Source: an uncultured virus (IMG/VR IMGVR_UViG_3300035181_002093) (Duplodnaviria; Heunggongvirae; Uroviricota; Caudoviricetes). From it: DNA of 64,000 nt. Below the pieces are notes generated by a model. That model did not search any database and was not told the DNA's origin. It worked only from the letters and a program-made list of their open reading frames with translations. The translations under genes were made by a program, and so were the position numbers. This document shows positions 13,606-50,250 of this stretch, one piece after another. How positions within the stretch are numbered: the first letter of the stretch is position 1; every line of letters starts with the position of its first letter. The DNA is taken from positions 62,001 through 126,000 of the IMG/VR virus record IMGVR_UViG_3300035181_002093. One strand, 5' to 3'.

Positions 13606-14154
13606 GTGCCCTTCGAGTCCCCGGCCGCCGCAGCCCACTACCTTGCCGCGATGATCGACGGTGAAGGAACGGTTGCGGTGCTCACCTCTCGATCGCGCAA
13701 TCGCGTGGTCAAGGTTTGCAACACCGACTGGGACATCATCACGGCTACCGTCGAAAGCTGCGAGACTCTCGGCATTCGATGTTGCGTTGTCGAACGGCCA
13801 CGTACAGGCCGTCCAAAACACTGGAAACAAGTTTGGGACGTCGCCATCCAAGATCGCGAAGCCCTCATGCGACTATTGACGCAAGTTCCGCTGCGGTCTC
13901 TTCGAAAACAGCAGCGACTCAAAACTTTGATTCAATCCTACCGAACGTCCAAACGGCCTCCGTTCGAGGATCTCCAACGAATGTACGTCGACGAAAAAAT
14001 GTCGTACACGGACATCATGCGAACGACAGGCGCTCGATCAACGGCAACGGTAGCGTACTGGCCCCGGACGTCAGGGATCGTCGCGCGCACCCGTTCAGTT
14101 GCGGGCCACTTGACGTGGCAGACGAAGCGAGGAGTTCTCCATGCCGTTCCGTAG
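13606..14154 (+). CDS. Free-standing LAGLIDADG homing endonuclease with C-terminal HTH
   Basis: YLAAMIDGEG motif, V.NTD, and LQRMYVDEKMSYTDIMR HTH-like tail. Confidence 0.85.
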   Translation: MPFESPAAAAHYLAAMIDGEGTVAVLTSRSRNRVVKVCNTDWDIITATVESCETLGIRCCVVERPRTGRPKHWKQVWDVAIQDREALMRLLTQVPLRSLRKQQRLKTLIQSYRTSKRPPFEDLQRMYVDEKMSYTDIMRTTGARSTATVAYWPRTSGIVARTRSVAGHLTWQTKRGVLHAVP

Positions 14155-14602
14155 CGAGGCTCAACGTCGCTACCTGTTCTCGCAACACCCGGATGTCGCC
14201 CGCGAGTTTGCGAACGCGACGCCCAAGGGCAAGAAGCTGCCCGAGCATGTCAAGAAGTCGCACGTGCGCGGCATCGCAGACGCGCTCGAGCAGTTCGGTT
14301 TCAAGCAAGCAGCAGAGGAGCTGCGCTTGAAGATCCCAAGCCGCACGTTCCACGGCTACGATGCAGCTCACAAGACGGAAGCGAACCGCGGCTCGAAGAA
14401 GGCGGATGTGGACGGCACCGCAGACAACCTCGCCGACGTGCTCAAGCAGATCGACGTGAACGTGTCGCCTGATGTACAGCTTGCAGCCCGCGATCCACTC
14501 GACCGTACTACTGCGTGGGGATCTCCCTCGAACCTTGCGGGCGGCGACTCGGCGAGCCGGCTCAGTGACATGGGACAGAACACTGCTTTTGGAGGCGTCT
14601 GA
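14141..14602 (+). CDS. Putative virion protein with MPFRSEAQRR N-terminus and shared motif
   Basis: SHVRGIADALEQFGFKQAA; GGAG upstream of the ATG. Confidence 0.7.
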   Translation: MPFRSEAQRRYLFSQHPDVAREFANATPKGKKLPEHVKKSHVRGIADALEQFGFKQAAEELRLKIPSRTFHGYDAAHKTEANRGSKKADVDGTADNLADVLKQIDVNVSPDVQLAARDPLDRTTAWGSPSNLAGGDSASRLSDMGQNTAFGGV

Positions 14603-15327
14603 TGTCACTCATGCCCCGTGAAGAGACGAGAACCTCTGAAAACTCGATCGGCCACATCATCGATCGAGCCACAGGTAAAGCCCCCAAACCTACAGCGGGT
14701 TCCCTCATCGACTCTTTGTTGAGCGGGGGAAAAATGGCGATGCCGATGCAAGGGCAACTGACGCCAGACCAGTTAGCAGTGAACGAAGAACTGAAGGGGC
14801 TCGGGGGACGCCCCAACATGCACGGAGGGATGGACATGCCTGAGTCTTTCCACGGAGACCTCATGTCGACATTCGAACGCCACAACATGCACCGTGCCCC
14901 CCTCGGGAATCCCAAGATGGCCGGGGTTTATCGTGTGGGTGTTGCCGACGCACTCGTGCGTTTCAAGATCGCAGCCCCTGCTCCCCTGCCTGCCCCTGCT
15001 GCGGGTCCTAGCTTCGCGTCCAAGGTCAAGGACTTCGGAGCCGGTCAGTGGGGCGCCGCGAAAGACTTCGCCGCGAATGTACGCGGTGGCATGGGTGGAA
15101 AGGCGAACCCGAACTTCATCACAGGCGCCGTACCCGAGCACAGCATGGACATGGCGCGTGCATCACAACGCGGTGCTGCAGTCGGCAACCTCAAGACCCT
15201 TGCACCGACGCTGCTCGCGGGCGGAGGTCTCTACATGTTGCACCAGCACAACCAGGCCGAGAAAGAGGAAGAGGCCCGGCAGCACGCGATGATGGGCGGC
15301 GGCATGTCGATGGGTGGAGGATACTGA
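14602..15327 (+). CDS. Putative internal virion protein with shared motif and C-terminal hydrophobic helix
   Basis: VYRVGVADALVRFKIAA; LAPTLLAGGGLYML. Confidence 0.65.
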   Translation: MSLMPREETRTSENSIGHIIDRATGKAPKPTAGSLIDSLLSGGKMAMPMQGQLTPDQLAVNEELKGLGGRPNMHGGMDMPESFHGDLMSTFERHNMHRAPLGNPKMAGVYRVGVADALVRFKIAAPAPLPAPAAGPSFASKVKDFGAGQWGAAKDFAANVRGGMGGKANPNFITGAVPEHSMDMARASQRGAAVGNLKTLAPTLLAGGGLYMLHQHNQAEKEEEARQHAMMGGGMSMGGGY

Positions 15328-15328
15328 C

Positions 15329-16108
15329 GTGCCGATGAACCCTCTACTAGCGCGCAGCCTCATGGGCGCGGCGATCGGCACAGCCGGCGGAGCCTTGACC
15401 GCTGAAAAAGGTCATCGTGAAGAAGGTGCGCTGCAAGGCGCAGCGATCGGAGGCGCCGGCGGTGCCCTTTACCACCTTGGTAAGCAGGCACCCACCGCAG
15501 GACCGCGTCCTCCGGGGCCAAGTGCTCCTGGTCCAAGCGCAGGTCCGCGTCCAGCAGGTCCAAGTGCTCCTGGTCCAAGCGCAGGTCCGCGTCCAGCAGG
15601 TCCGTCCTGGGAAGACAGAATGCGACAACAGTGGCGGGCGCAAGATGAGGCCCGTGCGTCCGCATCACGGCAGGCACGACAGAGCGCCAAAGAAGAGGCG
15701 TACAAACACACGCAACAAAGCCAGTCCGCACAAGACGGTTTCAAATACCGTCAACAAGCGGAGGACAAGCACTGGGGTGCGCAGAACGAAGATGTTTTCA
15801 ACAACTGGCGTAAGGCGCGACAGGGCGCTGGTGCGGGTCCAAGTGCTGTTATAGGACAATCAGCTCCACGCGGAGCGCCAAGTGGCGGACTTCCGTCGTG
15901 GATGAGCGGAGCGCAAACACAGGCGGAGGCGAAGAGTCGCTTCAGAGAACAAGCAATGAATATGCATCCAGACCGTGGCGGAAACACGGCCGACATGCAG
16001 TCATTGAATGCACAGTGGGCCGCTGCACGGAAACACCCTGACTTCTCGAGCATGAAAGAAGCGTGGTGGATGGGCAAAGCGGCTGCGTTACAACATTTCG
16101 GTCTCTAA
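15329..16108 (+). CDS. Glycine-zipper protein with C-terminal J-domain (HPD)
   Basis: GAAIGTAGG/GAAIGGAGG zippers; AKSRFREQAMNMHPDRGG..DMQSLNAQW; ends AWWMGKAAALQHFGL. Confidence 0.75.
   Translation: MPMNPLLARSLMGAAIGTAGGALTAEKGHREEGALQGAAIGGAGGALYHLGKQAPTAGPRPPGPSAPGPSAGPRPAGPSAPGPSAGPRPAGPSWEDRMRQQWRAQDEARASASRQARQSAKEEAYKHTQQSQSAQDGFKYRQQAEDKHWGAQNEDVFNNWRKARQGAGAGPSAVIGQSAPRGAPSGGLPSWMSGAQTQAEAKSRFREQAMNMHPDRGGNTADMQSLNAQWAAARKHPDFSSMKEAWWMGKAAALQHFGL
15517..15604. repeat. Coding 42-bp tandem duplication (PSAPGPSAGPRPAG x2)
   Basis: CCAAGTGCTCCTGGTCCAAGCGCAGGTCCGCGTCCAGCAGGT occurs twice in tandem. Confidence 0.9.
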
Positions 16109-16113
16109 CCAAC

Positions 16114-17895
16114 ATGGCGACAACGCTCGGACAGCACCTCGTCGACTCCATCCTCCCATCGAAGTGGCGAGGACAGGGGGCGCTCACCAAGGGGAACCTG
16201 AACAAGGTCCTCCTCGGTGTCGCAAAAGAGGACCCGAGCAAGTACCCCGACGTCGTGACCAAGCTCAAGCGTCTCGGTGACGAGGTCGCAACGCTCGACG
16301 GCATCTCCGTCGGCCTCGACGACATCGCGCCCCGTGTTGCTGAACGCGACGCTGCCTTGAAGCCGCACGTCGAAGCCTTTCGAAAGGCGACGACCAACGC
16401 GGACAAGGTCAAGACGCTCGTGGGCGGACAGAATGCGATGCTCATGCTGGCACGCAACCACCCAGGCACGATGGGCGAGATGGTTCGCGCCGGCGGTCGC
16501 GGCAATGCTGCACAACTCATGCGCACCGTGGGCGCACCCGTCTTCGCCGAAGACTCCAAGGGCAAGGTCATTCCGTGGCTCGTCGACAAGAGCTTCTCCG
16601 AAGGGCTCAAGCCTGCGGATGCGTGGATCATGGGCGGTCAGGCGCGTGTCAACGCGGTGGTCTCGAACATCTCGGTTGTCGAGCCCGGTGACCTTGCGAA
16701 GATCCTCGTCAACAACATGGGCGACCAGCTCGTGACGACGGTGGACTGCGGCACCAAGAACGGCATCGCGATGTTGCCGACCGACGCACACCTCATCGAC
16801 CGCTACCAGGCGGGCACGAACAAGCTGATCACGCCGCAGTACGCGTCTCACCTTGCCAAAGAAGGCAAGGAGGTCATCGTCCGTTCTCCGATGACCTGCG
16901 AAGCTGCGCACGGCGTCTGTCAGCGCTGCCAAGGCCTGTCGTCTTCGGGTGGCATGCATTCGATCGGAACGAACGTTGGCGTTCGCGCGGCTCAAGCGCT
17001 CGCCGAGCCGCTCACGCAGTTCGCCCTCAACGCGAAGCACGGCGGGCGCGTCGTCGGTGTTGACGACGAGAAGCGGCTCGAGGGCATCAAAGGCGTGCGA
17101 GCCTTGCTCGAGATTCCGACATCGTTCGCACACAAGGCGGTACTTGCTGACCGCGACGGTTCCATCACGAAGATCGACAAGGCTCCGCAGGGCGGTCACT
17201 ACGTCTTCGTCGGCGACGGTAGCCACTACGTGCCTCCCGCACACAAGGTCGTCGTGGGCATCGGGCAATCGATGTATGCAGGGGACTTGCTCTCCGATGG
17301 CGTACCCAAGCCTGACGAGATCGTTCAACACAAAGGCCTCGGTGAAGGTCGACGCTACCTCGTCGACGCGCTCTCCGATGTCTACAAGCGCGCAGGCTCC
17401 GAGGTCGACAAGCGCCACCTCGAGACGCTCGCCAAGTCCGTGCTCAACCACGTCCAGATCATTGATCCCGGTCCCGACGACGCATTCATCAAGGGTGACG
17501 TCGTCGACTACAATCGGTTCCATGCGTCCCTGGCCGCATCCAAGAAACGCCTCCCGACGACAGACGCGATCGGCGAGACGCTCGCGGACGGCATCCTCCA
17601 CCACACGGCGGGTACTGTCGTGACGCAGCCAATCGCAGACCAGCTCGTACGCCACGGCGTGACGTCGGTGATGACGTCCAGCCAGGGGCCGCGTGCACTG
17701 CCGTTCATGCGCCCGGCGTCGCGCACACCTCTTCTCAATCCGGATTGGATGGCACGCCTCGCACACCGCTACCTCAAGGAGTCATTGCTAACAGGCATCC
17801 ACCGCGGCGATGTCTCCAACCTACACGGGGCGTCCCCTGTTCCAGCGTACGCTGCAGGCACAGAGTTTGGCCTTGGTGAAGAGGGGCAATACTGA
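16114..17895 (+). CDS. rpoC: RNA polymerase beta' C-terminal half (bridge helix, Zn site, trigger loop)
   Basis: TTLG, GISVGLDD, AGGRGN..Q, SFSEGL, VDCGT, RSPMTC...VCQRCQG, GVRAAQALAEPLTQ...HGG, DKRHLE. Confidence 0.93.
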   Translation: MATTLGQHLVDSILPSKWRGQGALTKGNLNKVLLGVAKEDPSKYPDVVTKLKRLGDEVATLDGISVGLDDIAPRVAERDAALKPHVEAFRKATTNADKVKTLVGGQNAMLMLARNHPGTMGEMVRAGGRGNAAQLMRTVGAPVFAEDSKGKVIPWLVDKSFSEGLKPADAWIMGGQARVNAVVSNISVVEPGDLAKILVNNMGDQLVTTVDCGTKNGIAMLPTDAHLIDRYQAGTNKLITPQYASHLAKEGKEVIVRSPMTCEAAHGVCQRCQGLSSSGGMHSIGTNVGVRAAQALAEPLTQFALNAKHGGRVVGVDDEKRLEGIKGVRALLEIPTSFAHKAVLADRDGSITKIDKAPQGGHYVFVGDGSHYVPPAHKVVVGIGQSMYAGDLLSDGVPKPDEIVQHKGLGEGRRYLVDALSDVYKRAGSEVDKRHLETLAKSVLNHVQIIDPGPDDAFIKGDVVDYNRFHASLAASKKRLPTTDAIGETLADGILHHTAGTVVTQPIADQLVRHGVTSVMTSSQGPRALPFMRPASRTPLLNPDWMARLAHRYLKESLLTGIHRGDVSNLHGASPVPAYAAGTEFGLGEEGQY

Positions 17896-18341
17896 TGATC
17901 GCTCGAGCACATGCAAAGGGTATCGAAGATGCCCTTGCGCGCTTCCAAGTCAAAGACGCGGGCATCATGGAAGGCATCAAGCAGACCTTCATCGGACAGC
18001 CTGGGCGTGCTTTCGTGGAAGGACCGCGTACGTTCTCTCCGGGTGGAATGCTTTCCACCAAGAACGTATGGTGGCCCAGCGTCAAGGGCCAGCCGTTGAA
18101 CTGGATTGGACGTGCTGGCACGATCGCAGCACCGCTCATGGCACTCTCTGCCATGCGGTCAAACCCGCAAGAGGGCCACCTATCAAACGCGCTCGGTGCG
18201 CTTGGTGGAATCGCTGGGAGCGCATATGGTTTCCCGGCGCTTGGCATGCTTGGCGGACCTCTTCTCGCACAAGCGGGCGCACGAGCTGGACGTGGCCTCG
18301 GACATCTACTCGGCAGTAAACCGAAGGACCTCTATCAATGA
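17895..18341 (+). CDS. Glycine-zipper virion protein with shared N-terminal motif
   Basis: AHAKGIEDALARFQVKDA; GALGGIAGS...GLG. Confidence 0.7.
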   Translation: MIARAHAKGIEDALARFQVKDAGIMEGIKQTFIGQPGRAFVEGPRTFSPGGMLSTKNVWWPSVKGQPLNWIGRAGTIAAPLMALSAMRSNPQEGHLSNALGALGGIAGSAYGFPALGMLGGPLLAQAGARAGRGLGHLLGSKPKDLYQ

Positions 18342-18574
18342 TCAACGACGCCTATAATAAAGGCCGTACCGATGCACTCACCCGCTTCAAGCTCGCTCAA
18401 GGCATGGGCATGGGTGCTGGTGGTATGAATGTCGGTGGTGGCGTCGGCGGTGGCACGTCGGGCAGTCCTGGCGCAGCGGGAATGGCAGCACCACTGCCTC
18501 CCGCGATGGCCGCTCCAACATCCGCGGCGCCGCCCATGGCAGCGGGGGCTCAAAAGGCTCGCGCGCTCGGTTAG
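18338..18574 (+). CDS. Small G/A/P-rich protein with shared N-terminal motif
   Basis: AYNKGRTDALTRFKLA. Confidence 0.7.
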   Translation: MINDAYNKGRTDALTRFKLAQGMGMGAGGMNVGGGVGGGTSGSPGAAGMAAPLPPAMAAPTSAAPPMAAGAQKARALG

Positions 18575-18646: not shown

Positions 18647-19966
18647 ATGTTCAAGCATGCGTACGTCCGTGGCATCCAGACCGCGTTGGTCAACAGCGGC
18701 GCAGCCGCGTTCCCCGACGAGACCACCGCGGCGAAGGTCGCGGACTACATCGCTGACCGTGTCGACATCGACCCTCTGAAGGGTGTGTCGCGCGAGGCGA
18801 CCCACAAGATCGGGACGGACCTGGTCGCAGCCTCCGACTGGATCAAGCAGCAGCCCGGCTTCAAGGCGGCGAGCTTCAACAAGCTCGCGACGTGGGAAGA
18901 CGTCGCGCAGCTCGCGGATCGCAACGCGACCCAGCTGATGACGAAGGCCGCCGAGGGCTCGACCATCGAGGGTGGCGACAAGGGGAACACCCAAGCCGAG
19001 GCGCCCGCGGGCGAGACCAAGATGGACGCCTCGCAGCGTCCTCCCGGCTATGCCGAGGACAGCCGCGGCAAGACCGAGATCGACACCCGGCCGGGCACGG
19101 TCGGCAAGGAAGAGGAGCAGCCGAACAAGCCCAAGGAGACCGACTCCAAGGACAACTCGGTGCAGGAGCACTCGCGCACCGCGTCGCTCGCTGACCTCTT
19201 CCGCAAGTCGGCCGAGGGCTCGACGATCATGGGTGGCGACAAGGGCAACACCGCCATGTCGTCGGCCGAGGCCAAGATGGACGCGGCACAACGTCCCGCA
19301 GGCTACGCCGTCCTGCCCACGCAGGGTGCACTCGGCGCGATGATGAACCTCGTCGGCGGCCCCGCGGTCGTCGGCAAGGAGACCGCGCAGCCGAACAAGC
19401 CCGGCGAGTCGCCGAGCGGTTCGAACTCGGTGACCCAGCAGTCCGCCAAGGCGGCTGCCGAGGACCCGTACATCGCGCTCTTCAAGAAGGTCGCTGCCGA
19501 GGTGCACGAGTACCTCCCGGGCGGTCTCCACGAGAACGCCAAGATCGCCGCGGTCCGCGCCTGCATGGGCATGACGACCGAGGAGAAGGCGTACTACCTC
19601 CGCGGCCTGCAGAAGGAGGCGGCGGATGCGTCGACGGGTTCTTCCAGCCTGCCGCCGGGCTCGCGCGGTGATCGCTACCGTGAGCACAACCCGGACGCGA
19701 CGCACTCGCGGCCCGGCGCCTACGATGGCCGCTCTGGCAACCAGGGCACCAAGCAGGCCGACGACCTCCCGCCCTTCATGAAGAAGGACGAGAAGGACGA
19801 GAAGAAGGACGACGACAAGGAGAAGGACAAGGGCGGCATGCCCGACTTCATCCGCGAGAAGATCGAGGGCAAGAAGCACGAGGAAGGCGAGTCGAAGAAG
19901 GAAGAGCACAAGGAGGCCTCGCTTCGCGACTTCTTCCGTCGCATCGACGCGGCACAGCGCGCGTGA
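18647..19966 (+). CDS. Putative scaffold/internal head protein with internal duplication and many K-x-A sites
   Basis: AYVRGIQTAL; two copies of K[AS]AEGSTI.GGDKGNT...KMDA.QRP.GYA; strongly biased codons. Confidence 0.7.
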   Translation: MFKHAYVRGIQTALVNSGAAAFPDETTAAKVADYIADRVDIDPLKGVSREATHKIGTDLVAASDWIKQQPGFKAASFNKLATWEDVAQLADRNATQLMTKAAEGSTIEGGDKGNTQAEAPAGETKMDASQRPPGYAEDSRGKTEIDTRPGTVGKEEEQPNKPKETDSKDNSVQEHSRTASLADLFRKSAEGSTIMGGDKGNTAMSSAEAKMDAAQRPAGYAVLPTQGALGAMMNLVGGPAVVGKETAQPNKPGESPSGSNSVTQQSAKAAAEDPYIALFKKVAAEVHEYLPGGLHENAKIAAVRACMGMTTEEKAYYLRGLQKEAADASTGSSSLPPGSRGDRYREHNPDATHSRPGAYDGRSGNQGTKQADDLPPFMKKDEKDEKKDDDKEKDKGGMPDFIREKIEGKKHEEGESKKEEHKEASLRDFFRRIDAAQRA

Positions 19967-23298: not shown

Positions 23299-23959
23299 AC
23301 GCAGCCCCGACGACCGCTACCAAGCGGTGATGCGGTCGCCGCACGCGCCTGCACACGCGTACGAAGCTGCCCTTTGGAACTTCAAGACCCAAGGCGTTGC
23401 GGACGACGTGATCGAACGCGTGGTCGACGTGTACGAAGACGCGTTCGAACGCGAGCTGCTTCAAGCGTGGATCATCGCCGGTGCGTCTGACGAGGACATC
23501 AGCACACGGGGCGGCGTGCCTCCTGAACTTCTCTCGCCCTATCGCCATCTCTGCTGCAACGTTGCCGCGTTCCGCGATCGACTTGAGATGATGCGCTGGG
23601 TCAACATGTACAAGGGCTCGCGAACGGGCAAAGTCATGCTCGAGCGCGCGCTGCACTTCGACGGCATCGAGGCGATCGCACACCTCAGCGGTCGCAAGAC
23701 TGTGCTTTCACCAGACCACGTCAACGAACAAGCCATGCGCGAGTCATACTTCCGCAGCATCAGCACGCTGCGTGCTTCGAGCATCGCAGGCCCGGATGCG
23801 CTCGCGGCTCACCAGCTGATGAAGACGGCGATGACGGCTGCGCAAGCGGCGGCAAACCGCGGCGAGCCGAACATGGCGGAGACGCTGCTCAAGCTCAAGC
23901 ACCGCGAGGTGACGTGGCATGTCGAGGACATCGTGCCTCACGGGGAGATCCTTCACTGA
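23288..23959 (+). CDS. Hypothetical protein
   Basis: 223 aa, overlapping both neighbours. Confidence 0.7.
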   Translation: MRRERSPDDRYQAVMRSPHAPAHAYEAALWNFKTQGVADDVIERVVDVYEDAFERELLQAWIIAGASDEDISTRGGVPPELLSPYRHLCCNVAAFRDRLEMMRWVNMYKGSRTGKVMLERALHFDGIEAIAHLSGRKTVLSPDHVNEQAMRESYFRSISTLRASSIAGPDALAAHQLMKTAMTAAQAAANRGEPNMAETLLKLKHREVTWHVEDIVPHGEILH

Positions 23960-26602: not shown

Positions 26603-26604
26603 TC

Positions 26605-30065: not shown

Positions 30066-30638
30066 ATGAAGCTCTCAAACGCACTCGGGATGATCAAAGG
30101 CGGCGAGAAGACCGCGAGCGCGTCTGCGCCCACCGGATCTGCGTCTCCAACCACAGACGCCGGCGAGCGTCTGAAGCAAGCGCTCAAGGAAGCGACCGCT
30201 CCGGCGGTGCAGTCCAAGACCGCGAGCCAGACTTCGCCGATCGAAGACCTCACCAAGATCGCGGCTGACCTGAGCAAGGCCGAGCACGAGGCCCTCGCCA
30301 AGGAGGCGCAGCTCTATGGCGCCGCCATGTGCGACGGCTTCATGGCTCGCGCGTCTCAGTACAAGGAGGCGGCCGACAAGGCCGCGCCCCTCGCGAAGAC
30401 CGCCGCAGTCGCAGGAGGGTCATCGGACTTCGAGAAGTTCGCTGCCGAGAACCCGGACCTCGTGAAGGAAGCGGCCACCCTCGGCTACACGTCCACGATG
30501 GGTCAGCTCGAAAAGCTGGCCGAGTCGGCGTACGCCAAGGGCTGGAACGACACGGTCGAGCAGATCCACAAGGTGGCGAGCGAGTCCTTCGTCGCCGGCT
30601 TCCGTGACACTCTTCAGCTGATCGAGGGCGCTCGCTGA
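30066..30638 (+). CDS. Putative scaffold-like protein, very K-x-A-rich
   Basis: At least 10 K-x-A in 190 aa; AYAKGWNDTV motif variant. Confidence 0.7.
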   Translation: MKLSNALGMIKGGEKTASASAPTGSASPTTDAGERLKQALKEATAPAVQSKTASQTSPIEDLTKIAADLSKAEHEALAKEAQLYGAAMCDGFMARASQYKEAADKAAPLAKTAAVAGGSSDFEKFAAENPDLVKEAATLGYTSTMGQLEKLAESAYAKGWNDTVEQIHKVASESFVAGFRDTLQLIEGAR

Positions 30639-34616: not shown

Positions 34617-34906
34617 CGCTCGTTGCTGCATATACACAAGGCAAGAACGCAGCGCTTGCGCATTTCAAGCTCGCTAACTCGATGGGCGCGAATGCAGGCG
34701 TGCAGCCGCGGGGCGATGAGTTCAGCCATGGCACCGAGCGCATCCCGTACGCACACCGCGAAACACCCGGAGACGGGGCTCACACGGAAGCCGCAAGTAA
34801 CGCCCGCGCGAACATGCCCGCCTGGCTGTGGGACCACTTCACGACCTACGACAACATTGCGCCGGGACGTGCGGATGGGTCGTTCGGACAAGAGGTCATC
34901 GGGTGA
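34613..34906 (+). CDS. Small protein with shared N-terminal motif
   Basis: AYTQGKNAALAHFKLA. Confidence 0.7.
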   Translation: MTLVAAYTQGKNAALAHFKLANSMGANAGVQPRGDEFSHGTERIPYAHRETPGDGAHTEAASNARANMPAWLWDHFTTYDNIAPGRADGSFGQEVIG

Positions 34907-34915
34907 AATTCGCCC

Positions 34916-34921: not shown

Positions 34922-34927
34922 TCAACC

Positions 34928-35107
34928 ATGTCGAACAACCACCTGAAGACCGCGCACGAGTACGGCATCCAGAAGGCTCTCGAAGCTGTCGGCTACAAGA
35001 GCGCGGAGGAAGTCCGTCGCGATGCCGAGGCGCTCGGCCTGATCGAGGCACCCAAGACGGCCGCCGCGAACCCGCTCGCAGACCTGTTCCGCGCGATCCA
35101 GAAGTAG
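34928..35107 (+). CDS. Small protein with shared motif (59 aa, not in ORF track)
   Basis: MSNNHLKTAHEYGIQKALEAVGYKSAEE...PKTAAANPL. Confidence 0.7.
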   Translation: MSNNHLKTAHEYGIQKALEAVGYKSAEEVRRDAEALGLIEAPKTAAANPLADLFRAIQK

Positions 35108-35116
35108 TTCCCCGCC

Positions 35117-35494
35117 ATGTCGCTGCTGCGCCAAAAGTCGGCTGAGGGCGGGCGCGCAGCGCTCGCGGCCTTCGGCTTGCCTGCGCCGCAGCAGCCAGGT
35201 CTCAAGTCTGTTGGGATCAAGACGCCACACGCGTCGGATCTTCCACACCTGCCACGGCCCGGATCGACCAACGCACCATCGGTTGGAGACTCGATGGGCG
35301 TTGACGCTGCGAAGATCGCGTTCAACGTCGGCATGGGTGCGTCGACATCGAGCGACGGTGCAGGTGCTCAGGCGGGTGAGCCGACGGACACCGGACGTCG
35401 TCAACGCAGCGTCATCGATCGCGCACTCCAGCGCAACGACGACGACTACGCAACCAGCAGCATGCCGTTGCCAGGAGACGTCGTTTCGCCATGA
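35117..35494 (+). CDS. Small protein with shared N-terminal motif
   Basis: KSAEGGRAALAAFGL; KIAFN. Confidence 0.7.
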   Translation: MSLLRQKSAEGGRAALAAFGLPAPQQPGLKSVGIKTPHASDLPHLPRPGSTNAPSVGDSMGVDAAKIAFNVGMGASTSSDGAGAQAGEPTDTGRRQRSVIDRALQRNDDDYATSSMPLPGDVVSP

Positions 35495-36354
35495 CCCTCG
35501 AGCTGGCATACGCGAACGGGCAACACGCGGCGCTCGAGCGCTACAAGCTGGGCTGGCCTGCGCCAACGAACCCGACCGTGGCAGGGAGCGCCGTGCTCCG
35601 TGCCAAGGACGGTCCGTCGTCGTTGTCACCGCAGGCGCAGCAAGCGATGGCACCTCCGGCGACACCTGCATCCGTCGCGCAGATCTTCAGCGCGCACGAG
35701 CAGGGCGAGACCCGTGGCGAACCTCGTCGCAAGCTCTCTGCGGACATCTGCACGTCGTGTCGCAAGGCCAAGCACTACGGCACGTGCAGCCAGCCCCGGC
35801 CGATTCCAATGAAGGCTGCGGACTTCAATCCGGGCATGCTCGGTGGTGACCCCAAGCAGGGCGACAATCCGTCGACCAGCCCTCACTACCACTCGGCGAC
35901 GAGCAGCATCAGCGCGCTTGGGCGCTCAAGCGACGGACGTCCTGCGGACGAGCAGGCAGGTTCGGGTTTCGCTGACCTGTTTCGACACCAAGGCATCCGC
36001 AACAGCGCGGATGAGCCGGGACGGATGACGGGCGGCCTGAACAAGGTCGCGATCGACGCAGACCGTGAACGTACTCGCCGTCACGCGATTCTGTACCGCA
36101 TGTACGGCGTCAAGCTCAGCGACTTCTTCACCAACATGCCAGGCGCGGCGACGCACTCGATGCACGAGCAGCGTGGCACGCCGATCAATCCCTACGAAGA
36201 ACGTCTGACCCGCAAGTCCCCGCCCGTCGGCTGGGGTGACGAAGGTGACCAGCGCATCAACCGCGCATTCGGTCAGATCGACAACGCGGCCGACACATCC
36301 AGCATCGGGGGCGGCGCCGGTTCACCTGATACCGGGCCGGCGGTCCTTGGCTGA
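35491..36354 (+). CDS. Modular protein with shared N-terminal motif and small CxxC..H..C knuckle
   Basis: AYANGQHAALERYKLG; CTSCRKAKHYGTC. Confidence 0.7.
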   Translation: MTLELAYANGQHAALERYKLGWPAPTNPTVAGSAVLRAKDGPSSLSPQAQQAMAPPATPASVAQIFSAHEQGETRGEPRRKLSADICTSCRKAKHYGTCSQPRPIPMKAADFNPGMLGGDPKQGDNPSTSPHYHSATSSISALGRSSDGRPADEQAGSGFADLFRHQGIRNSADEPGRMTGGLNKVAIDADRERTRRHAILYRMYGVKLSDFFTNMPGAATHSMHEQRGTPINPYEERLTRKSPPVGWGDEGDQRINRAFGQIDNAADTSSIGGGAGSPDTGPAVLG

Positions 36355-40386: not shown

Positions 40387-41028
40387 ATGTCCGACAACTT
40401 CTTCGACAAGTTCATCGCGGACCTCGTCAAGGGCGCGGAAGCCTCGCAAGGCTTCATGCCCGGGTCGAAGGTCAACGTCGAGATCTCGCGCGAGCATCGT
40501 GGTCGCGAGGAGAAGCTCGCGTCATTCGGTGGCGCCCTCGGCGGCGGTCTTCTCGGTGGTGGTGCTGGTGCACTTGGTGGCGGCCTCGCCGGCGCTGGCA
40601 CGGGTGCACTGCTCGGCAAGCTGCTCCATCTCGACCCCGCGGTCGCCCAAGACATGGGTGCGCTGCTTGGCGTGGGAGGTGCTGCCGCAGGAGGTCTCGG
40701 CGGTGCGGCCGCAGGCACGGCGGCTGGCATGGAACCGCACCGTCCTTCGTTGATGGAGCGCATGAAGGGCGGGGCCCTCGAGTCCCGCTACACCGACGGC
40801 ATCAAGGCCGCCGCCGCAGCGTTCGGCATCAAGGAGGCCTTCCTCCCTGCGCTGCTTGGCGCGGCTGCCCCGATGCTCGGTCGCTCTCTGCTTGGCAAGG
40901 CTGCGCCTGCCATCGCGGGGCGTGTGGGCAGCGGGCTAGCAGGCGCTGCATTCGACACCGCAGCCCAAGCCGGTGGCCAGGCGATTGGCAACAAGCTGAT
41001 GCCGCCGAAGCCCCCGATGCCAAACTGA
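40387..41028 (+). CDS. Glycine-zipper protein with shared motif
   Basis: EKLA then long GGxxG zipper; RYTDGIKAAAAAFGIKEA. Confidence 0.7.
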   Translation: MSDNFFDKFIADLVKGAEASQGFMPGSKVNVEISREHRGREEKLASFGGALGGGLLGGGAGALGGGLAGAGTGALLGKLLHLDPAVAQDMGALLGVGGAAAGGLGGAAAGTAAGMEPHRPSLMERMKGGALESRYTDGIKAAAAAFGIKEAFLPALLGAAAPMLGRSLLGKAAPAIAGRVGSGLAGAAFDTAAQAGGQAIGNKLMPPKPPMPN

Positions 41029-41032
41029 CCAA

Positions 41033-41344
41033 ATGATCAAGCGCGCCTACCACAGCGGAGTCGAAGCGGCGTCGAAGCGATTCGGCGTTCGCGAGGGCTC
41101 GATCATGGGCATGATCCAGGACACGCTTCCGTTGCTTGCGATGGGCGCTGCCAAAAGCACCGCGAAGGCGCTTGTGCCGGGCGCCTTCGCACACATCGAT
41201 CGCTTGCAGGAAGCGCCCGGCAAGTTCCTGCGTCGCAACCTACTGCCCGCGCACATGCAAGTGTCACCTGCTGACGCGCTTGCACGACACCTCGAGACCG
41301 CGTCACTACCCCCAACAGGTCCTCACATGATGGGGATTCGATGA
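41033..41344 (+). CDS. Small protein with shared N-terminal motif
   Basis: AYHSGVEAASKRFGV. Confidence 0.7.
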   Translation: MIKRAYHSGVEAASKRFGVREGSIMGMIQDTLPLLAMGAAKSTAKALVPGAFAHIDRLQEAPGKFLRRNLLPAHMQVSPADALARHLETASLPPTGPHMMGIR

Positions 41345-42273
41345 GCGTCGAGCAGTTCAAGATCGCAGCCCTTCCGGTGGACGTCAGCAAGTTGCTGACG
41401 AATACACCTCTGGGCGGTGCGCTCGCCGGCGCCGGCATCGGTGGCCTCACGAGCTTGCTCAGCAGCGACGAGCACCCTCTGCGCGACATGGCGGTGGGTG
41501 CGGGTGCCGGCGGTCTTCATGGCCGCCTCGGGCAGCAGGCGAACGTTCTCGGGCAGCAGGCGGGACAGCTCGAGTCCCGCATGGGTGACGTCGAGCGCAC
41601 GCTGGCAGCACGCCGCGCAGTTCCCGCATCCTCCGCAACGCCTGCGGCAGGCGGCTTCATGCGCATGTTGGGCGACCTTCTGGGTGGTCGAAAGAACGCA
41701 AGTTTCGCGTCGATTTTCCCGGCGGTCGCAGCTCCTGCGCTGGGTAGCTTTGCGGGCCGTGCGATCGGCGCGAAGTTCAAGCAGCCGGACCTGGGCATGT
41801 TGCTCGGTGGCATCACCGGCGGCACCACCGGCCAGCTCCTCAAGGAGAAGGTCGAAGAGGCGGAAGACGCCACCGTGCCGCCCGGTGCACCGTACAACCT
41901 CGACGCGACGTCTCAGGATATCCCGTCGTGGGCGCTGCAGGGCGCACACCTCCTGCAGCCACGCATGAAGCAATCGGCACACGCGCATGGGCGTGAGCCC
42001 ATTGGGGACGTACTGAAGGGTGAGATCCCGGGCTACCCCGTTGCGGAAGCCTTGGTCAAACACGGCCCTGAAGCAGGGGCACGTACGTTCGGCGGCATGG
42101 CAGGCGGCGGCTTGGTGGGTGGCGGTCTCGGCGCGCTCGGAGCCTACGGCATCGAAAAGCTTCTCGGTCACCAGGTCAACGTGCCCGGCATCGGCATGTC
42201 ACTTCCTGATCTACTCGCATCCGTTGGTGGCACAATTGGAGCCACCAAGGGCCTGCGCTACATGAAAGCCTGA
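41341..42273 (+). CDS. Multi-module glycine-zipper protein
   Basis: Three zipper modules after FKIA, RKNA and MKQSA. Confidence 0.7.
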   Translation: MSVEQFKIAALPVDVSKLLTNTPLGGALAGAGIGGLTSLLSSDEHPLRDMAVGAGAGGLHGRLGQQANVLGQQAGQLESRMGDVERTLAARRAVPASSATPAAGGFMRMLGDLLGGRKNASFASIFPAVAAPALGSFAGRAIGAKFKQPDLGMLLGGITGGTTGQLLKEKVEEAEDATVPPGAPYNLDATSQDIPSWALQGAHLLQPRMKQSAHAHGREPIGDVLKGEIPGYPVAEALVKHGPEAGARTFGGMAGGGLVGGGLGALGAYGIEKLLGHQVNVPGIGMSLPDLLASVGGTIGATKGLRYMKA

Positions 42274-43917: not shown

Positions 43918-45336
43918 GTGAAGGACCCTCTACGCGCACGACGCGGTGCTGCCAATCTCGGCGCCGCAGGTCTCGGGCGCACGGGTAAGGGGAATTGGGA
44001 GCTGGGCGTCGTCGTCGCATACAACTCCGCAACGCACACGTCGATCGTGCGGACGCACAGCGGACGCCCGCTTCAAGACGTCCCTCAGATCAAGTCGACT
44101 GCCACGGGCTTCGACCACATCCCGACGGGCACGACCGTCGTGATCTCCTACGACTTGGGCATTCCCGCGATCGTTGGCTGCATGGACTTTCCAAGTCCGT
44201 CGCAACCGTCGGTTCAGGCACCGACGTTGACGGGCGTCGAAGGCGTGGGTGATGCCGATCCCACGCAGCTGACACAGGGCACCAACAACTTCAAGCCGCC
44301 CAACGCGCCCACCGACATGGGAGCCGGTGATTGGGCCCAGGTGGGCACCCTGGGGAACCACGTCGCCGTGCTCGAGGGCGGGGTTACCTTGATGGGTAGC
44401 CCGAGCGCTCACGTGCAGTCGATTGGACCTTCTGGAACGCTGCGAACGATCGCACGCCGCATCCAGCAATTCTCAGACTTCGGGCAGATGCGCATCGAGA
44501 ACGACCAAGGGCGGACGTCGTTCGTGCTTCGCGCAGGTTCCAACCAGGCGACCCAGTCCGGGATGGACGAACAGCACTGGACGATCCGCTTGGACCTCGG
44601 CGCGACAGGTGATGTGTTGGATTTTCGAATCCTCGAGCCCGAGGGCAAGCTCTTGTTCCGGCTCCATGCCGGCTCGGATGGGCGCGTGCAGATCTATGGG
44701 GATGGTGGCGTTGACCTGTCGTCTGGCGACAAGGGAACGTCCGAGATGCGGCACGATGTTGCAGGGTCGAGGACCGCCACCGTCGGCGGAGACGAGACGC
44801 ACGTCGTGGGCGGGAGCATGTCGTCCTCGATCGGGGCATCAGCAACCACCACGGTCAGCACCGACGAGACGCGATCGGTGGGGCGCAATTCGACCGCGTT
44901 CGTCGGGGGCGACCGCGATGTCGGCGTGAGCGGTGCTGAAACGCAAGCGATCGCAGGCAACCGTGGCGTTCAAGTCGGCGGAGACGACACTGTCGACGTT
45001 AGCGGAAGTTCTACGTCCAAGGCAGGCAGCATCTACACGGTCGACGGCGGCACCGCAGTGAAGCTAGGCGCCAACGCGGTCGAGCCAGTGATCAAGGGCA
45101 CCGCGTACGGAAGTACGGTGATGTCGCCTCTCGGAGCCGCCGGCGCTGCTGCAGAAACGATTGCAGCGACCGCCCTCGTGACGATCGCCCCGGACGCGTT
45201 TATCGGGTCACCAACCGCGCTCACCCTCACCGCAGTGACGCAGCTTGCAGGCGGGCTTGCCGCTCTTGGCGCCCAGCTGTCTGCGATCGCGGCGGCATAC
45301 CCAGGAACTCTCTCCACCAAGGTACGCACCGAGTAA
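43918..45336 (+). CDS. Baseplate central spike (gp5/gpV/VgrG-like)
   Basis: N-terminal OB-fold-like region; beta-helix repeats VGGDETHVVGG, VGGDRDVGVSG, VGGDDTVDVSG. Confidence 0.75.
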   Translation: MKDPLRARRGAANLGAAGLGRTGKGNWELGVVVAYNSATHTSIVRTHSGRPLQDVPQIKSTATGFDHIPTGTTVVISYDLGIPAIVGCMDFPSPSQPSVQAPTLTGVEGVGDADPTQLTQGTNNFKPPNAPTDMGAGDWAQVGTLGNHVAVLEGGVTLMGSPSAHVQSIGPSGTLRTIARRIQQFSDFGQMRIENDQGRTSFVLRAGSNQATQSGMDEQHWTIRLDLGATGDVLDFRILEPEGKLLFRLHAGSDGRVQIYGDGGVDLSSGDKGTSEMRHDVAGSRTATVGGDETHVVGGSMSSSIGASATTTVSTDETRSVGRNSTAFVGGDRDVGVSGAETQAIAGNRGVQVGGDDTVDVSGSSTSKAGSIYTVDGGTAVKLGANAVEPVIKGTAYGSTVMSPLGAAGAAAETIAATALVTIAPDAFIGSPTALTLTAVTQLAGGLAALGAQLSAIAAAYPGTLSTKVRTE

Positions 45337-47837: not shown

Positions 47838-48287
47838 ATGAACAAAATCTTCGTCATCGCTCTCACGTTCTTCATCGCGACGTCCTCTGGCTGCGGTGCC
47901 GCCCAGGACTGCAAGAAGCCCGAGAACATGAACTCGGTAACGTGCACCGCGCTCAACAGCGTCATCGACTGCACCAAGGGCGAGCTGCCCGCCGTGATCA
48001 TGCAGTTCGGTCCTGTGGTCAGCCAGCTCATCGACGAGGCAACGGGCGCCGACGGTACGGTCGACTGGGCACACGTCGAGAAGATGCTCGGCTCGCTCGG
48101 CGCCGCGTATGGCACGTGCGTGCTCGGCACCATCATCCAGAACTACATGGCGTCGCCGCCGAAGCTCTCGCCGGGTGAAGTGAAGCCGTCGGTGGCTGCA
48201 CTCAAGGACGGCCTGAACCACACGCGCGCGACCCTGTGGAAGCTCGACCCGAAGGTGAAGATCCACACCGCCAAGGGGGACCTGTGA
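47838..48287 (+). CDS. Predicted lipoprotein
   Basis: Signal peptide ending SSGC (lipobox-like); several Cys. Confidence 0.6.
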   Translation: MNKIFVIALTFFIATSSGCGAAQDCKKPENMNSVTCTALNSVIDCTKGELPAVIMQFGPVVSQLIDEATGADGTVDWAHVEKMLGSLGAAYGTCVLGTIIQNYMASPPKLSPGEVKPSVAALKDGLNHTRATLWKLDPKVKIHTAKGDL

Positions 48288-49069
48288 GCACCACCCAGAT
48301 CGCCGGCGTCACCCGCAAGCTCAACTGGAAGCGTCAGCCGTCCGATCCGCGCGACCTCGTGCTCGTGCACAGTCCTGCGTTGATGGCGGCGCTACCGCCA
48401 CACGCGACCACACGCACGCGCGCAGAGCCGCCGATCCGTGATCAGGGCCAGCTCGGTAGCTGCACGCAGAACGCCGGCGCCGAGGCCATGGGCTTCGCGT
48501 ACATGGTCGCGACGGGCAAGCCTGACCCGATGTTCTCGCGCCTGTTCGGCTACTACCGTACACGTGTGAACATCGAGGGCAACCCGCCGTCCGAGGACAG
48601 CGGCTGCAACGTGCGTGACGTGTTCCGTGCGTACCGCCGGTTCGGCATCTGCCTCGAGCAGACGTGGCCGTATGACGTCTCGAAGTTCGAGATCGAGCCC
48701 AACGCCTCGGCCGTTGCCGAGGCGCTCAATCACCAGGCGCTCAAGTTCTACGCGTGCATGACCCTGCACGCGATCAAAAAAAGCATCGCGGATGGCTGGC
48801 CCGTCATCTTCGGCTTCGACTGCTTCGACTCGCTCGACAGCGAGGAGACCGCGCGCACCGGCGTCATCCCGCTGCCGAAGTACGGCGAGGGGTCCATCGG
48901 CGGCCACTGCATGATGTTCGACAGCTACGACGACGCAACCCAGCTGTTCTCGGGTCCCAACTCGTGGGGCACGGGCTGGGGAGACCACGGGCGCTTCCAC
49001 CTGCCGTACGGGTACTGGGAGCAGGGATACGCCTCGGACGCGCACACGCTTCGCCAAGAAGAGATCTGA
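48284..49069 (+). CDS. Papain-like cysteine peptidase (C1 family)
   Basis: RDQGQLGSCT, GGHCM, NSWGTGWGDHG catalytic motifs. Confidence 0.92.
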   Translation: MSTTQIAGVTRKLNWKRQPSDPRDLVLVHSPALMAALPPHATTRTRAEPPIRDQGQLGSCTQNAGAEAMGFAYMVATGKPDPMFSRLFGYYRTRVNIEGNPPSEDSGCNVRDVFRAYRRFGICLEQTWPYDVSKFEIEPNASAVAEALNHQALKFYACMTLHAIKKSIADGWPVIFGFDCFDSLDSEETARTGVIPLPKYGEGSIGGHCMMFDSYDDATQLFSGPNSWGTGWGDHGRFHLPYGYWEQGYASDAHTLRQEEI

Positions 49070-49081: not shown

Positions 49082-49087
49082 TATAAT
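49082..49087 (+). promoter_or_regulatory. Putative late promoter -10 (CGCCTATAAT)
   Basis: 6 nt upstream of ATG 49094. Confidence 0.6.
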
Positions 49088-49093
49088 TAGGCC

Positions 49094-49459
49094 ATGGCGC
49101 AGAACCTGACCGTCGCTGGTGCGGCCGCGATCCCTCTCGAGGACGGGGGTGCCACTGCACCTATCAACCTGGCGGTCGCGCTCGGTTTCACGTCGCGTGT
49201 GGACTTCCAGCGGTCCTACTCAGGCGCCGTCACCGACGACGTCGTCAACTTCGGCACGCTCGCGCTCGCGGGCGCCAAAGGCCTCATCGTGAAGTGCACC
49301 GCCGGTGGCTGCACGATCAAGTTCAACGGCGGCCTCGACGCGTGGCCCCTCGCGCCAGGAGGCTACTTCATCTGGATCAACACCGCGCAGGCGTTCCCGA
49401 CCGCGGCGTTGATCACGACCACGGGCGCAGCCGCGGTCCTCTTCATCGCGGTGGGATGA
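49094..49459 (+). CDS. Putative virion structural protein
   Basis: 121 aa, beta-rich. Confidence 0.6.
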   Translation: MAQNLTVAGAAAIPLEDGGATAPINLAVALGFTSRVDFQRSYSGAVTDDVVNFGTLALAGAKGLIVKCTAGGCTIKFNGGLDAWPLAPGGYFIWINTAQAFPTAALITTTGAAAVLFIAVG

Positions 49460-49462
49460 CCC

Positions 49463-49936
49463 GTGCTGCGCACGGCGTTCCAACGCGGCCGTGAAGGCGC
49501 ACTTGCACGCTTCGGCGTGAAGGTTGCAGCGGTTCCGCTCGCACGTCCGATGCCTGCCGCCAAGGGCCTCGCAACGCCTCATGCGGCACCTACAGCGGCA
49601 CCCTACACACCGTCAGGCCCGCCGGGCCATGCAGACACGGTGCAGCAGTTCGCCGCGCGCGATAAGCAGCACGCGATGGAGATGCGCGAACCGCTGATGG
49701 CGGACGTTCACAACATGGCAGCACAGCACATGGCACAGCCGAGCCCCGCAGTCCCGACGCCTGCGCCTGCTGCAGGCCCCTCAGGGATGCAGCGCTTCAT
49801 GCGTCCGGTGAAACGCGGCCTCGGGCTTGCTGCACTCGGAGCAGGCGGCGCGCTTGCCTACGGCCTCCATCAACAGAACCAAGAAGACCGCGACAAGCGG
49901 TCGCTCGTGTACGCACCGTTGCAGGGGGCTTACTGA
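49463..49936 (+). CDS. Protein with shared N-terminal motif and C-terminal hydrophobic helix
   Basis: AFQRGREGALARFGVKVAA; GLGLAALGAGGALAYGL. Confidence 0.7.
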   Translation: MLRTAFQRGREGALARFGVKVAAVPLARPMPAAKGLATPHAAPTAAPYTPSGPPGHADTVQQFAARDKQHAMEMREPLMADVHNMAAQHMAQPSPAVPTPAPAAGPSGMQRFMRPVKRGLGLAALGAGGALAYGLHQQNQEDRDKRSLVYAPLQGAY

Positions 49937-50250
49937 TGACACTCAAGCAGGCGTACACGAAGGGTCGGCGCGACGCGTTCAAGAAGTTCGCACTCGGGCC
50001 ACCGACGCAGGTCGATCAGTTCGTCGCGAGCGTCGAGCACGGCAAGGACGTTCCACCCGAAGCGGGCATGCCTCCGATGTCTCACGTGCCAGGGGGCACG
50101 CTACCTGCGCTCGACGGCACCGTCCCGCTCGACATGTCGACGTCGCCGCCGACGCCCCCGGGTCTCGGGTCCACGGTTGGAACACCGCCCGCGCTCGCAG
50201 GAGATCCCGCCATGCAGCCACCGCCCTCGATGGGCGCCTTGGGCGGGTGA
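49936..50250 (+). CDS. Small Pro-rich protein with shared N-terminal motif
   Basis: AYTKGRRDAFKKFALG. Confidence 0.7.
   Translation: MTLKQAYTKGRRDAFKKFALGPPTQVDQFVASVEHGKDVPPEAGMPPMSHVPGGTLPALDGTVPLDMSTSPPTPPGLGSTVGTPPALAGDPAMQPPPSMGALGG

Follow-up and report, generated by a model that had tools for sequence, protein, structure and literature searches.

What does a short peptide do when it recurs on fourteen otherwise unrelated proteins of one virus? The question is raised by an uncultured virus of the Caudoviricetes, IMG/VR record IMGVR_UViG_3300035181_002093, from whose 137,503-bp contig the bases 62,001-126,000 were analysed (a stretch of 64,000 nucleotides, here called the window, in whose numbering all its coordinates are given). 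The peptide, A-[YHF]-x-x-G-x-x-x-A-L-x-x-F, is referred to here as the tag. It is found in 14 open reading frames (ORFs) of the plus strand between 14,141 and 50,250, in frame with plausible genes. The tag is real: it is common to unrelated proteins, it is conserved in their orthologs, it is confined to the late block of genes, and it travels with accessory genes.

The tag and its fourteen copies

A hidden Markov model (HMM) built from the 14 copies was run over the six frames of the whole contig (2,760 pieces, 242,047 amino acids). The copies scored 11.0-19.8 bits and the best other place 7.2 bits, a separation that arises partly by construction, because the model was built from the same copies. 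When each copy was left out of the model in turn, six of the 14 still outscored every non-copy. The other eight (at 14926, 16061, 18659, 34952, 35135, 35506, 40786 and 41045) are not individually significant. The family is thus solid overall, while its weakest members (35135, 40786, 34952, 16061 and 18659) rest on context and orthologs.

The regular expression [YHFW]xxGxxxA[LAFS]xx[FYVL], composed after the copies had been seen, matched 14 times in the 54 proteins of the block (15,541 amino acids), at 12 of the copies and at two other places. Shuffling the residues 2000 times gave a mean of 0.83 ± 0.92 matches and a maximum of 5, and none of the 2000 shuffles reached 14. Eight of the 14 matches begin within the first 12 residues of a protein, which hold 4.2% of the residues. 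The enrichment check by HMM and by shuffling that the initial annotation had proposed therefore came out in favour of the tag, with 14 matches against a shuffled mean of 0.83 and no copy outside the block.

The carriers had been described as otherwise unrelated, and this was supported by masking the tag: an all-against-all BLASTP comparison of the 15 proteins then gave a best E value of 0.022. At the DNA level the copies are 49% identical. The same codon is used at 209 of the 463 positions where two copies have an identical residue, the longest common word is 10 nt, and all four Gly codons and all four Ala codons occur at the invariant Gly and Ala positions. Since the codons differ between copies, selection acts on the peptide, and the earlier remark that the DNA is not conserved between copies holds in the form of codon turnover without a common word longer than 10 nt. 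A repeat at the level of DNA is ruled out by this codon variation.

About 15 copies had been listed at the outset. Fourteen of them are present, on the plus strand and in frame, and the positions first assigned to them are those of the gene starts, not of the motif; the copy claimed in ORF 30066-30638 is not supported and is discussed below. Ten of the 14 copies are N-terminal (about residues 5-22, starting at residues 4-9), in agreement with the first impression that the tag lies mostly within the first ~20 residues, three are internal and one is C-terminal. The tag is best described as a portable module of ~16-22 residues with the consensus M-x-[LI]-x-x-A-[YHF]-x-x-G-x-x-x-A-L-x-[RK]-[FY], often extended by (G)-hydrophobic-K-x-A. 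The N-terminal copies have an aromatic residue at position 6, 7 or 10, except for the copy of ORF 35117, which has none; in eight of the ten it stands at position 6 or 7. Within six residues after the tag, a strict K-x-A is found in eight of the 14 copies and [KR]-x-[AG] in ten (background windows, 9.5%), so that K-x-A does often follow the tag, as had been noticed. These counts do not represent 14 independent trials, as the copies are related. Furthermore, three of the four tags that are not N-terminal have a triplet in front as well (K-M-A, K-G-G and K-E-A).

The first three copies in the window are among these four. ORF 14141-14602 (153 amino acids) carries an internal tag at residues 40-52 (14258..14296), followed by K-Q-A; its score of 15.6 bits falls to 9.5 when it is left out of the model, still higher than that of any non-copy. 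The tag of ORF 14602-15327 (241 amino acids) is also internal (residues 109-121, 14926..14964; 12.9 bits, left out 6.0) and is flanked by K-M-A before and K-I-A after. In ORF 15314-16108 the copy lies at the extreme C-terminus (residues 250-262 of 264, 16061..16099; 17.5 bits, left out 3.7), where it makes up the last 14 residues, with K-E-A before it. The fourth, an internal copy with K-G-G before and K-E-A after, is that of the Gly-zipper-like ORF 40387-41028 (213 amino acids; residues 134-146, 40786..40824; 13.0 bits, left out 2.6).

The N-terminal copies, all likewise on the plus strand, begin with that of ORF 17895-18341 (17907..17945), a protein of 148 amino acids with a Gly-rich, hydrophobic C-terminal half; its tag is followed by K-D-A and scores 19.8 bits, or 18.0 when left out (rank 2). 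It is succeeded by the Gly/Ala/Pro-rich ORF 18338-18574 (78 amino acids; tag at 18350..18388, then K-L-A; 18.7 bits, left out 11.9) and by the charged ORF 18647-19966 (439 amino acids), which has a weaker copy with S for the final F (18659..18697; 13.5 bits, left out 4.2). Four tagged genes are found between 34613 and 36354. The tag of ORF 34613-34906 (97 amino acids; 34628..34666) precedes K-L-A and scores 17.8 bits (left out 13.1), and that of ORF 34928-35107 (59 amino acids; 34952..34990), which has its aromatic residue at position 10, precedes K-S-A (15.6 bits, left out 3.2). The weakest copy, in ORF 35117-35494 (125 amino acids; 35135..35173; 11.0 bits, left out 2.6, rank 39), lacks the aromatic residue; it retains G-x-x-A-A-L-x-x-F and is kept in orthologs. 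ORF 35491-36354 (287 amino acids) has a conserved Cys motif and 12 database representatives, and its tag (35506..35544; 14.8 bits, left out 4.5) is followed by K-L-G. Further downstream are the copies of ORF 41033-41344 (103 amino acids; 41045..41083, then R-E-G; 15.8 bits, left out 4.7), of ORF 49463-49936, which has a GTG start (157 amino acids; 49475..49513, then K-V-A; 15.1 bits, left out 7.3, above all non-copies), and of the Pro-rich ORF 49936-50250 (104 amino acids; 49951..49989; 16.6 bits, left out 8.6).

Relatives, gene order and carrier genes

Relatives were retrieved with the capsid protein, which gave 80 IMG/VR loci of 68-100% capsid identity on contigs of up to 198 kb. A six-frame HMM scan of these loci (1.51 million residues) found 42 places of at least 9 bits, 41 of them on the strand of the capsid gene. 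Positional orthologs are tagged in related uncultured phages of 110-190 kb, and the tag is kept in the orthologs of locus L024 (80% capsid identity, 55% GC) and locus L012 (90% capsid identity, 68% GC). Across an alignment of 44 instances, only G7 and A11, the pair G-x-x-x-A, are invariant.

The complete record G001 (187,862 bp, with terminal repeats) has nine matches, all on one strand between 20,093 and 53,623. Its ortholog of ORF 14141 retains the tag, its ortholog of ORF 14602 is a protein of 130 amino acids with the tag at its very beginning, and its orthologs of ORFs 17895, 18338 and 18647 are all tagged. Records G006, G007 and G008 have 14, 11 and 4 matches, in each case on one strand and in one block; the 14 matches of G006 are not independent, because this record is near-identical to the window. 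Four more distant complete records, scanned with the 44-instance alignment, have 2, 3, 0 and 2 matches. In all relatives that were examined, the tag is confined to one strand and to one late/virion block of roughly 36 kb. Among isolates, similarity was detectable only to Salmonella phage Arash, whose capsid protein is 41% identical, and to three Vibrio phages, and whole-record scans of the two nearest isolates, Arash and Vibrio phage D69, gave no tag match. A literature search for this phage clade, including Arash, found no paper.

A profile of the 36-residue N-termini was compared with 1.84 billion representative proteins and gave 38 matches at E ≤ 0.001; 31 of the 38, in proteins of 65-579 amino acids, begin at residues 1-5. 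Four (P0137, P0141, P0150 and P0152) are repeat proteins and are taken as artefacts, and the remaining matches belong to families present in the window. Among them are relatives for the tags of ORFs 18338-18574 (P0144, P0154 and P0158), 41033-41344 (P0149, P0151 and P0157), 49463-49936 (P0140) and 49936-50250 (P0146). Pfam has no family over the tag, either in 13 of the 14 tagged proteins and four database relatives at E values up to 10 or in ORF 15314-16108 at E values up to 5, and neither Pfam nor PHROG matches the tags at default thresholds. A search with a 45-residue tag for fusions to known domains returned 14 proteins, none with a Pfam domain. On these searches, the tag is restricted to this phage lineage. 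A peptidoglycan-binding domain was considered and rejected: P0152 had matched through four copies of a repeat that looks, by eye, like a peptidoglycan-binding one, the spacing was read as different, and there was no such Pfam match on the tagged proteins.

The window has a GC content of 58-66%, and a tightly packed chain of plus-strand genes runs from ~5,991 to 52,554. The putative structural nature of the block is anchored by the gene of the major capsid protein (32143-33081; 312 amino acids), which is 41% identical to the annotated major capsid protein of Arash. Family searches also picked out, on the same strand, a 1051-amino-acid protein (20143-23298), a sheath-like protein (37972-40377), a gp5-like spike (43918-45336) and, at the tail end of the block, a papain-like cysteine peptidase (Peptidase_C1; 48236-49069; 28.7 bits against a cut-off of 20.7). 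The virus has RNA polymerase genes of its own, also on the plus strand: a fused beta/beta' gene (8191-13599; 1802 amino acids, beta plus the N-terminal part of beta') and a piece for the C-terminal part of beta' (16114-17895, the start being probably 16114 by comparison with G001). The two pieces are separated by a plus-strand LAGLIDADG-like ORF (13606-14154; Pfam matches below the gathering score) and three tagged genes. The same interval in G001 holds two tagged genes, the orthologs of ORFs 14141 and 14602, and no counterpart of ORF 15314-16108. The flanks are on the minus strand, with helicase, exonuclease and HNH endonuclease genes upstream, and downstream with genes that include tail-fibre-like and weak baseplate-like ones. 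The initial annotation had seen no copy of the tag in the flanking non-structural genes, and none occurs elsewhere in the contig, though the downstream tail-fibre-like and baseplate-like genes are without it too.

The carriers are proteins of 59-439 amino acids with Gly/Ala/Pro-rich or Gly-zipper-like hydrophobic stretches and no known domains. To judge by gene order, their genes behave as accessory cassettes. In Arash, the genes 34613-36354 and 40387-42273 are missing between conserved neighbours: the homologs of 34137 and 36236 adjoin, and so do the sheath gene and the homolog of 42285. In the window, the first of these sites is occupied by four genes, all tagged, and the second by three, of which two are tagged. 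The first site contains no gene in L051 (16549-17858), two genes in L062 (12027-14513, one tagged) and four or five genes in L021 and L024.

The segments 34613-36354 and 40387-42273 can be regarded as two hot spots of gene-content variation between conserved structural genes. At the first of them, the number of genes in relatives ranges from 0 to 5, most of them tagged.

Fusions are also found among the carriers. Two database proteins, P0129 and P0132, have two tags each. In P0143, P0170 and P0172, three of 15 aligned homologs, an enzyme-like domain of ~135 residues stands directly before the tag and a module of the 34613 type, and in the other 12 homologs this domain stops just before the place where the tag would start. 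Its invariant residues are the R of Y/F-R-G, S-S-W and an E-x-E-like E-Y-L. There was no meaningful Pfam or PDB sequence match for this domain; its nearest named Atlas clusters include DRAT (0.92), ADP-ribosyl exotoxin (0.88) and Mod ADP-ribosylase (0.87), which are taken as leads. At the level of a lead, the domain is probably an ADP-ribosyltransferase. At the N-terminus of ORF 15314-16108 there is a Gly-zipper, and the protein also shows a weak resemblance to helix II of DnaJ, with an HPD motif, which scores 15.9 bits against Pfam DnaJ (E 0.014), below the cut-off of 27.8. If the J-like motif is real, the protein could be a phage-carried co-chaperone for the host DnaK.

Two further observations concern the ends of these proteins. 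The first 30 residues of ORF 14141-14602 (14141-14230) match PHROG 1375, a family of unknown function (E 4.6e-4), with an F-R/K-S-x-A-Q-R-R-like motif; in P0132 the PHROG 1375-like module is missing and the tag is N-terminal. Moreover, ORFs 18338-18574, 34613-34906, 35491-36354 and 49936-50250, together with database relatives, have C-termini of the form hydrophobic-hydrophobic-Gly (for example V-I-G, V-L-G and A-L-G). This ending could be a second terminal feature common to unrelated tagged families.

A possible route into the head and competing explanations

The initial annotation proposed a portable signal for capsid loading or scaffold binding. The reading preferred here, tentatively and with a probability a little short of even, is that the tag is a signal for incorporation into the prohead, like the capsid-targeting sequence (CTS) of phage T4, and is possibly clipped at the adjacent K-x-A. 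Its support is circumstantial and comes from the unrelated carriers, the near-fixed N-terminal position, the selection on the peptide, the orthologs, the confinement to one block and the accessory cassettes. We infer helicity of the tag, its binding to a prohead component, the presence of the carriers in the virion, their ejection and the cleavage. The tag would form a short helix and dock, through its invariant G-x-x-x-A face, on a prohead component that offers it a helix or groove; the candidates are the scaffold or core, the capsid protein and the portal. Late-operon cassettes encode the carriers, accessory proteins that are small and largely disordered or have Gly-zippers and whose set can change; the tag would bring these proteins into the head during its assembly, and they would depart later along with the DNA. 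In many carriers, a head-maturation protease could clip the tag at the adjacent K-x-A, in the manner of gp21 acting on the T4 CTS.

Conserved [KR]-x-[AG] triplets are also common in the group of small proteins encoded upstream of the capsid gene (23914-31278). Counting triplets conserved in 85% or more of the orthologs, there are six in the scaffold-like protein 30066-30638, five in 23914, four in 26605, three in 26156, two in 31123 and one each in 30642 and 30911, and none in 23288, 31651, 33631, 34137 and 36236; the neck genes have none. K31-E32-A33 of the capsid protein (32233-32241) is invariant in 43 sequences, and so are K15/A17 of the scaffold-like protein and K37/A39 of a 580-amino-acid protein in their own families. 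K.A[SGA] was observed 66 times, against 26.6 ± 4.8 in shuffles that disregard local composition. A maturation protease cutting behind K-x-A would agree with these triplets.

The candidate for such a prohead protease, on weak leads, is the 945-amino-acid protein of gene 27171-30008 (plus strand), just upstream of the scaffold-like gene. It contains an intein with Hint and LAGLIDADG domains (residues about 176-540), inserted at residue 176 in an invariant V-S-M-G|C, beside an invariant C-x-x-C...C. Its intein-free orthologs have ~580 amino acids. The family has 699 database homologs; among 120 of them that were listed, 15 have intein domains and none is named. The named Atlas clusters nearest to the 580-amino-acid ortholog are three families of prohead proteases, Peptidase_S78, S78_2 and S77, at 0.81-0.82, a level often reached by chance. 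The papain-like peptidase 48236-49069 was considered as the remover of the tag and is disfavoured, as a search of G001, which has nine tags, gave no homolog. G004, G005, Arash and D69 gave none either (a weak negative throughout, obtained without a positive control); with no homolog found in these five related or distant records, the peptidase looks accessory.

Several results weigh against a prohead signal that is clipped in this way. Three internal copies and one C-terminal copy are unexpected for a strict N-terminal propeptide, and four of the 14 tags have no [KR]-x-[AG] behind them. The triplets in general could equally reflect Ala/Lys-rich helices, in which K-x-A is common. No tag is present on the RNA polymerase subunits (8191-13599 and 16114-17895), the largest of all cargo should this polymerase be packaged. 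Eight of the 14 copies, when left out of the model, score 2.6-6.0 bits (ranks 16-39), under the best non-copy (7.1-7.8). The helical hydrophobic moment of the tag is ordinary (mean 0.31, background 0.26 ± 0.14), the mean hydrophobicity of the 13-residue cores being -0.47 to 0.36. Within orthologous families, the tag is conserved no better than other family-specific parts, such as, in the 34613 and 35117 families, the C-terminal third; since these parts are conserved as well, each carrier has its own function plus the common tag. The resemblance of the tag to the scaffold-like protein, described below, is not significant. As to the protease, the 580-amino-acid protein has no Pfam match and no PDB sequence match in a profile search, an AlphaFold2 model from 27 sequences of the 945/580-amino-acid protein has a mean predicted local distance difference test (pLDDT) of 56 with a poor N-domain (pLDDT 30-68), and Foldseek found nothing at E ≤ 0.001 (best E 0.34; T4 gp21 at rank 42, E 2.5). 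The poor N-domain, the empty PDB search and the absence of a significant Foldseek match make the protease a lead and not a finding.

A different use of the same helix, rather unlikely in our estimate, is hetero-oligomerisation, in which the G-x-x-x-A faces of ~14 proteins pair to build a single multi-protein body, for instance a plug in the tail lumen, an ejection complex or an inner-body-like core, with no docking to capsid or scaffold and a tag that is never removed. Small-xxx-small spacing is a classic helix-helix packing motif, and the invariant G and A lie four residues apart. Tags at N-terminal, internal and C-terminal positions, the two-tag fusion proteins, the Gly-zipper segments of several carriers and the four tags that no [KR]-x-[AG] follows would also suit such a body. 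A simple pairing helix, however, does not need the aromatic residue that eight of the ten N-terminal copies have at position 6 or 7. It overlaps with prohead incorporation, because a body of this kind would still be packaged. Action after delivery or in the infected cell, where the tag would bind some host or phage target and not a head component, is improbable; conceivable targets are the phage RNA polymerase, the membrane and, by way of the J-like protein, DnaK. Several carriers look membrane-active through their Gly-zippers, six tagged genes flank the RNA polymerase genes, and in one carrier there is the HPD motif that weakly resembles DnaJ (E 0.014, short of the Pfam cut-off); yet the tag is neither hydrophobic nor strongly amphipathic (moment 0.31 against 0.26), and other tagged genes lie at a distance from the polymerase genes, in the company of genes for head, neck and tail. 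Two other functions were rejected: a membrane-binding amphipathic helix, in view of the ordinary hydrophobic moment, and a Sec or Tat signal peptide, as the tags have no hydrophobic run and no twin-arginine motif.

The tag might have no common biochemical function at all and be mainly inherited from a common ancestor and of use in recombination, as a shared 5' segment through which cassettes are swapped between phages. We give this little probability: at 49% DNA identity and with no common word above 10 nt, the copies offer too little for homologous recombination, and the residues are under purifying selection with synonymous codon turnover, in orthologs of 55-68% GC. What the idea does accommodate is the place of the carriers in variable cassettes, the fusions and truncated remnants (for example the two-tag proteins and the 18-codon tail of ORF 15314-16108, starting M-K-E-A) and the Met that stands 4-9 residues ahead of three of the four non-N-terminal copies. 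A leader peptide of the kind found in ribosomally synthesised and post-translationally modified peptides (RiPPs) or bacteriocins, recognised by a modifying or exporting enzyme and cut by the papain-like peptidase 48236-49069, is very improbable. Many short precursors with a conserved leader and variable cores would look much like the carriers, and two tagged genes follow closely downstream of the Peptidase_C1-like gene. Carriers of up to 439 amino acids do not suit such precursors, no double glycine stands at the end of any of the 14 tags, no RiPP-type enzyme family turned up in the block in family searches, and no peptidase homolog was found in the same five records, with the weakness of that negative already indicated.

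Whether the tag derives from the scaffold is a question of its own. The scaffold-like protein (30066-30638, plus strand) has an all-helical model in which the helix 130-189 reaches pLDDT 80-90, and its C-terminal helix contains a motif-like segment, A-Y-x-x-G ... H-K-x-A (30528..30578). The initial annotation had counted this segment, AYAKGWNDTVEQI, as the fifteenth copy. It is not among the listed HMM matches, and hhalign placed the tag alignments on residues 153-164 (P 0.062) or 155-163 (P 0.05) of the scaffold-like alignment with a probability of ~1%, so that its membership of the tag family was not supported. In 31 orthologs, the G of the segment is invariant and the K and A are nearly so, the invariant Ala of the tag is not conserved there, and the segment is bracketed by conserved K-L-A and K-V-A. 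A complex prediction that combined a 36-residue tag with the scaffold-like and capsid proteins, each entered as an alignment, scored 0.00 in both runs; as the fold of the partner was itself uncertain, it speaks neither for nor against binding. It is distinctly unlikely, though worth stating, that the tag is a scaffold mimic, a scaffold-like helix bracketed by K-x-A that has spread onto cargo genes, with the same docking site and release by the same protease. Cargo would then dock at the site of the scaffold on the HK97-fold shell or the core, and the protease would cut after the Ala of K-x-A; herpesvirus assemblin, which cuts at Ala|Ser sites, offers a parallel. If this were true, the tag would be a programmable cargo-loading code, the phage counterpart of encapsulin loading peptides, and enzymes such as the ADP-ribosyltransferase-like domain would be carried by it into the host.

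The loading signal as first proposed is supported in part: its portability agrees with the evidence, while the scaffold-like copy is statistically weak, the four non-N-terminal copies do not suit a strict N-terminal propeptide, and the RNA polymerase is untagged. If the tag is such a signal, one short peptide would define the whole set of internal and ejected proteins of an abundant uncultured phage lineage, and about a dozen hypothetical proteins per genome would become a defined class of delivered effectors. It would provide a simple sequence rule to find new effectors, including enzyme fusions, and would add to the T4 CTS a further natural tag with which foreign proteins could be packed into phage heads. 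In the linked K-x-A pattern one could see the cleavage code of a head protease new to description. The present value of the tag lies in a testable hypothesis and a clean motif definition, not in a demonstrated mechanism.

Comparison with known systems

Scaffolding proteins of the P22 gp8 type have a C-terminal coat-binding helix. In the same way, the C-terminal helix of the scaffold-like protein has the conserved A-Y-x-x-G...K-x-A, and it is there that the tag profile aligns best, although this alignment is not significant (P 0.05-0.06). The cargo-loading peptides of encapsulins are mostly C-terminal and extended, and encapsulins have no scaffold, protease or genome. The tag would share with them the principle of a short, portable peptide that sends diverse cargo inside an HK97-fold shell, and in both cases its position in the carrier can vary; the consensus is different.

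The phiKZ-like phages (SPN3US, phiKZ and 201phi2-1) have a multisubunit RNA polymerase of their own, as is the case here, and many ejection or inner-head proteins. According to the account in PMC5694885, their propeptides have been proposed to target proteins into the prohead and to be removed by the prohead protease. In contrast to the tag, these propeptides are described there as mostly longer than 100 residues and cut at A/S-x-E. The same source reports that the SPN3US paralogs gp53 and gp54 have identical N-terminal 15 residues, which its authors take as a CTS-like sign. Sharing of this kind is between paralogs, whereas the tag is shared across a dozen unrelated proteins. Similarity searches found no phiKZ-like phage related to this clade, and Arash is distant (41% capsid identity).

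The closest parallel is provided by T4. As summarised in PMC5694885, which credits the work on the CTS to Mullaney and Black (1996), the internal head proteins of T4, including IPI-III and Alt, join the prohead core through an N-terminal CTS of 10-20 residues, and the prohead protease gp21 removes these N-terminal propeptides. In both phages, which are contractile-tailed, a short peptide of ~10-20 residues stands at the N-terminus of several unrelated accessory proteins (ten of the 14 copies here), its sequence is conserved across otherwise diverged carriers, and a short candidate cleavage motif is often found behind it. The carrier genes vary between related phages in both cases, the internal-protein loci of T-even phages being hypervariable. 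T4 Alt is an ADP-ribosyltransferase, the enzyme class suggested at lead level for the domain fused in front of the tag in P0143, P0170 and P0172. The tag departs from the CTS as described in its consensus, built on an invariant G-x-x-x-A, and in its candidate cut at K-x-A, where the site of the T4 prohead protease ends in Glu. Unlike the CTS, it has four copies that are not N-terminal. The tag thus resembles the T4 CTS in every feature that a sequence can display, and membership is not claimed. As judged from these copies and their orthologs, it differs from the known CTS in having another consensus, an uncultured lineage as its home, an unusually clear invariant core and a tolerance of position within the carrier.

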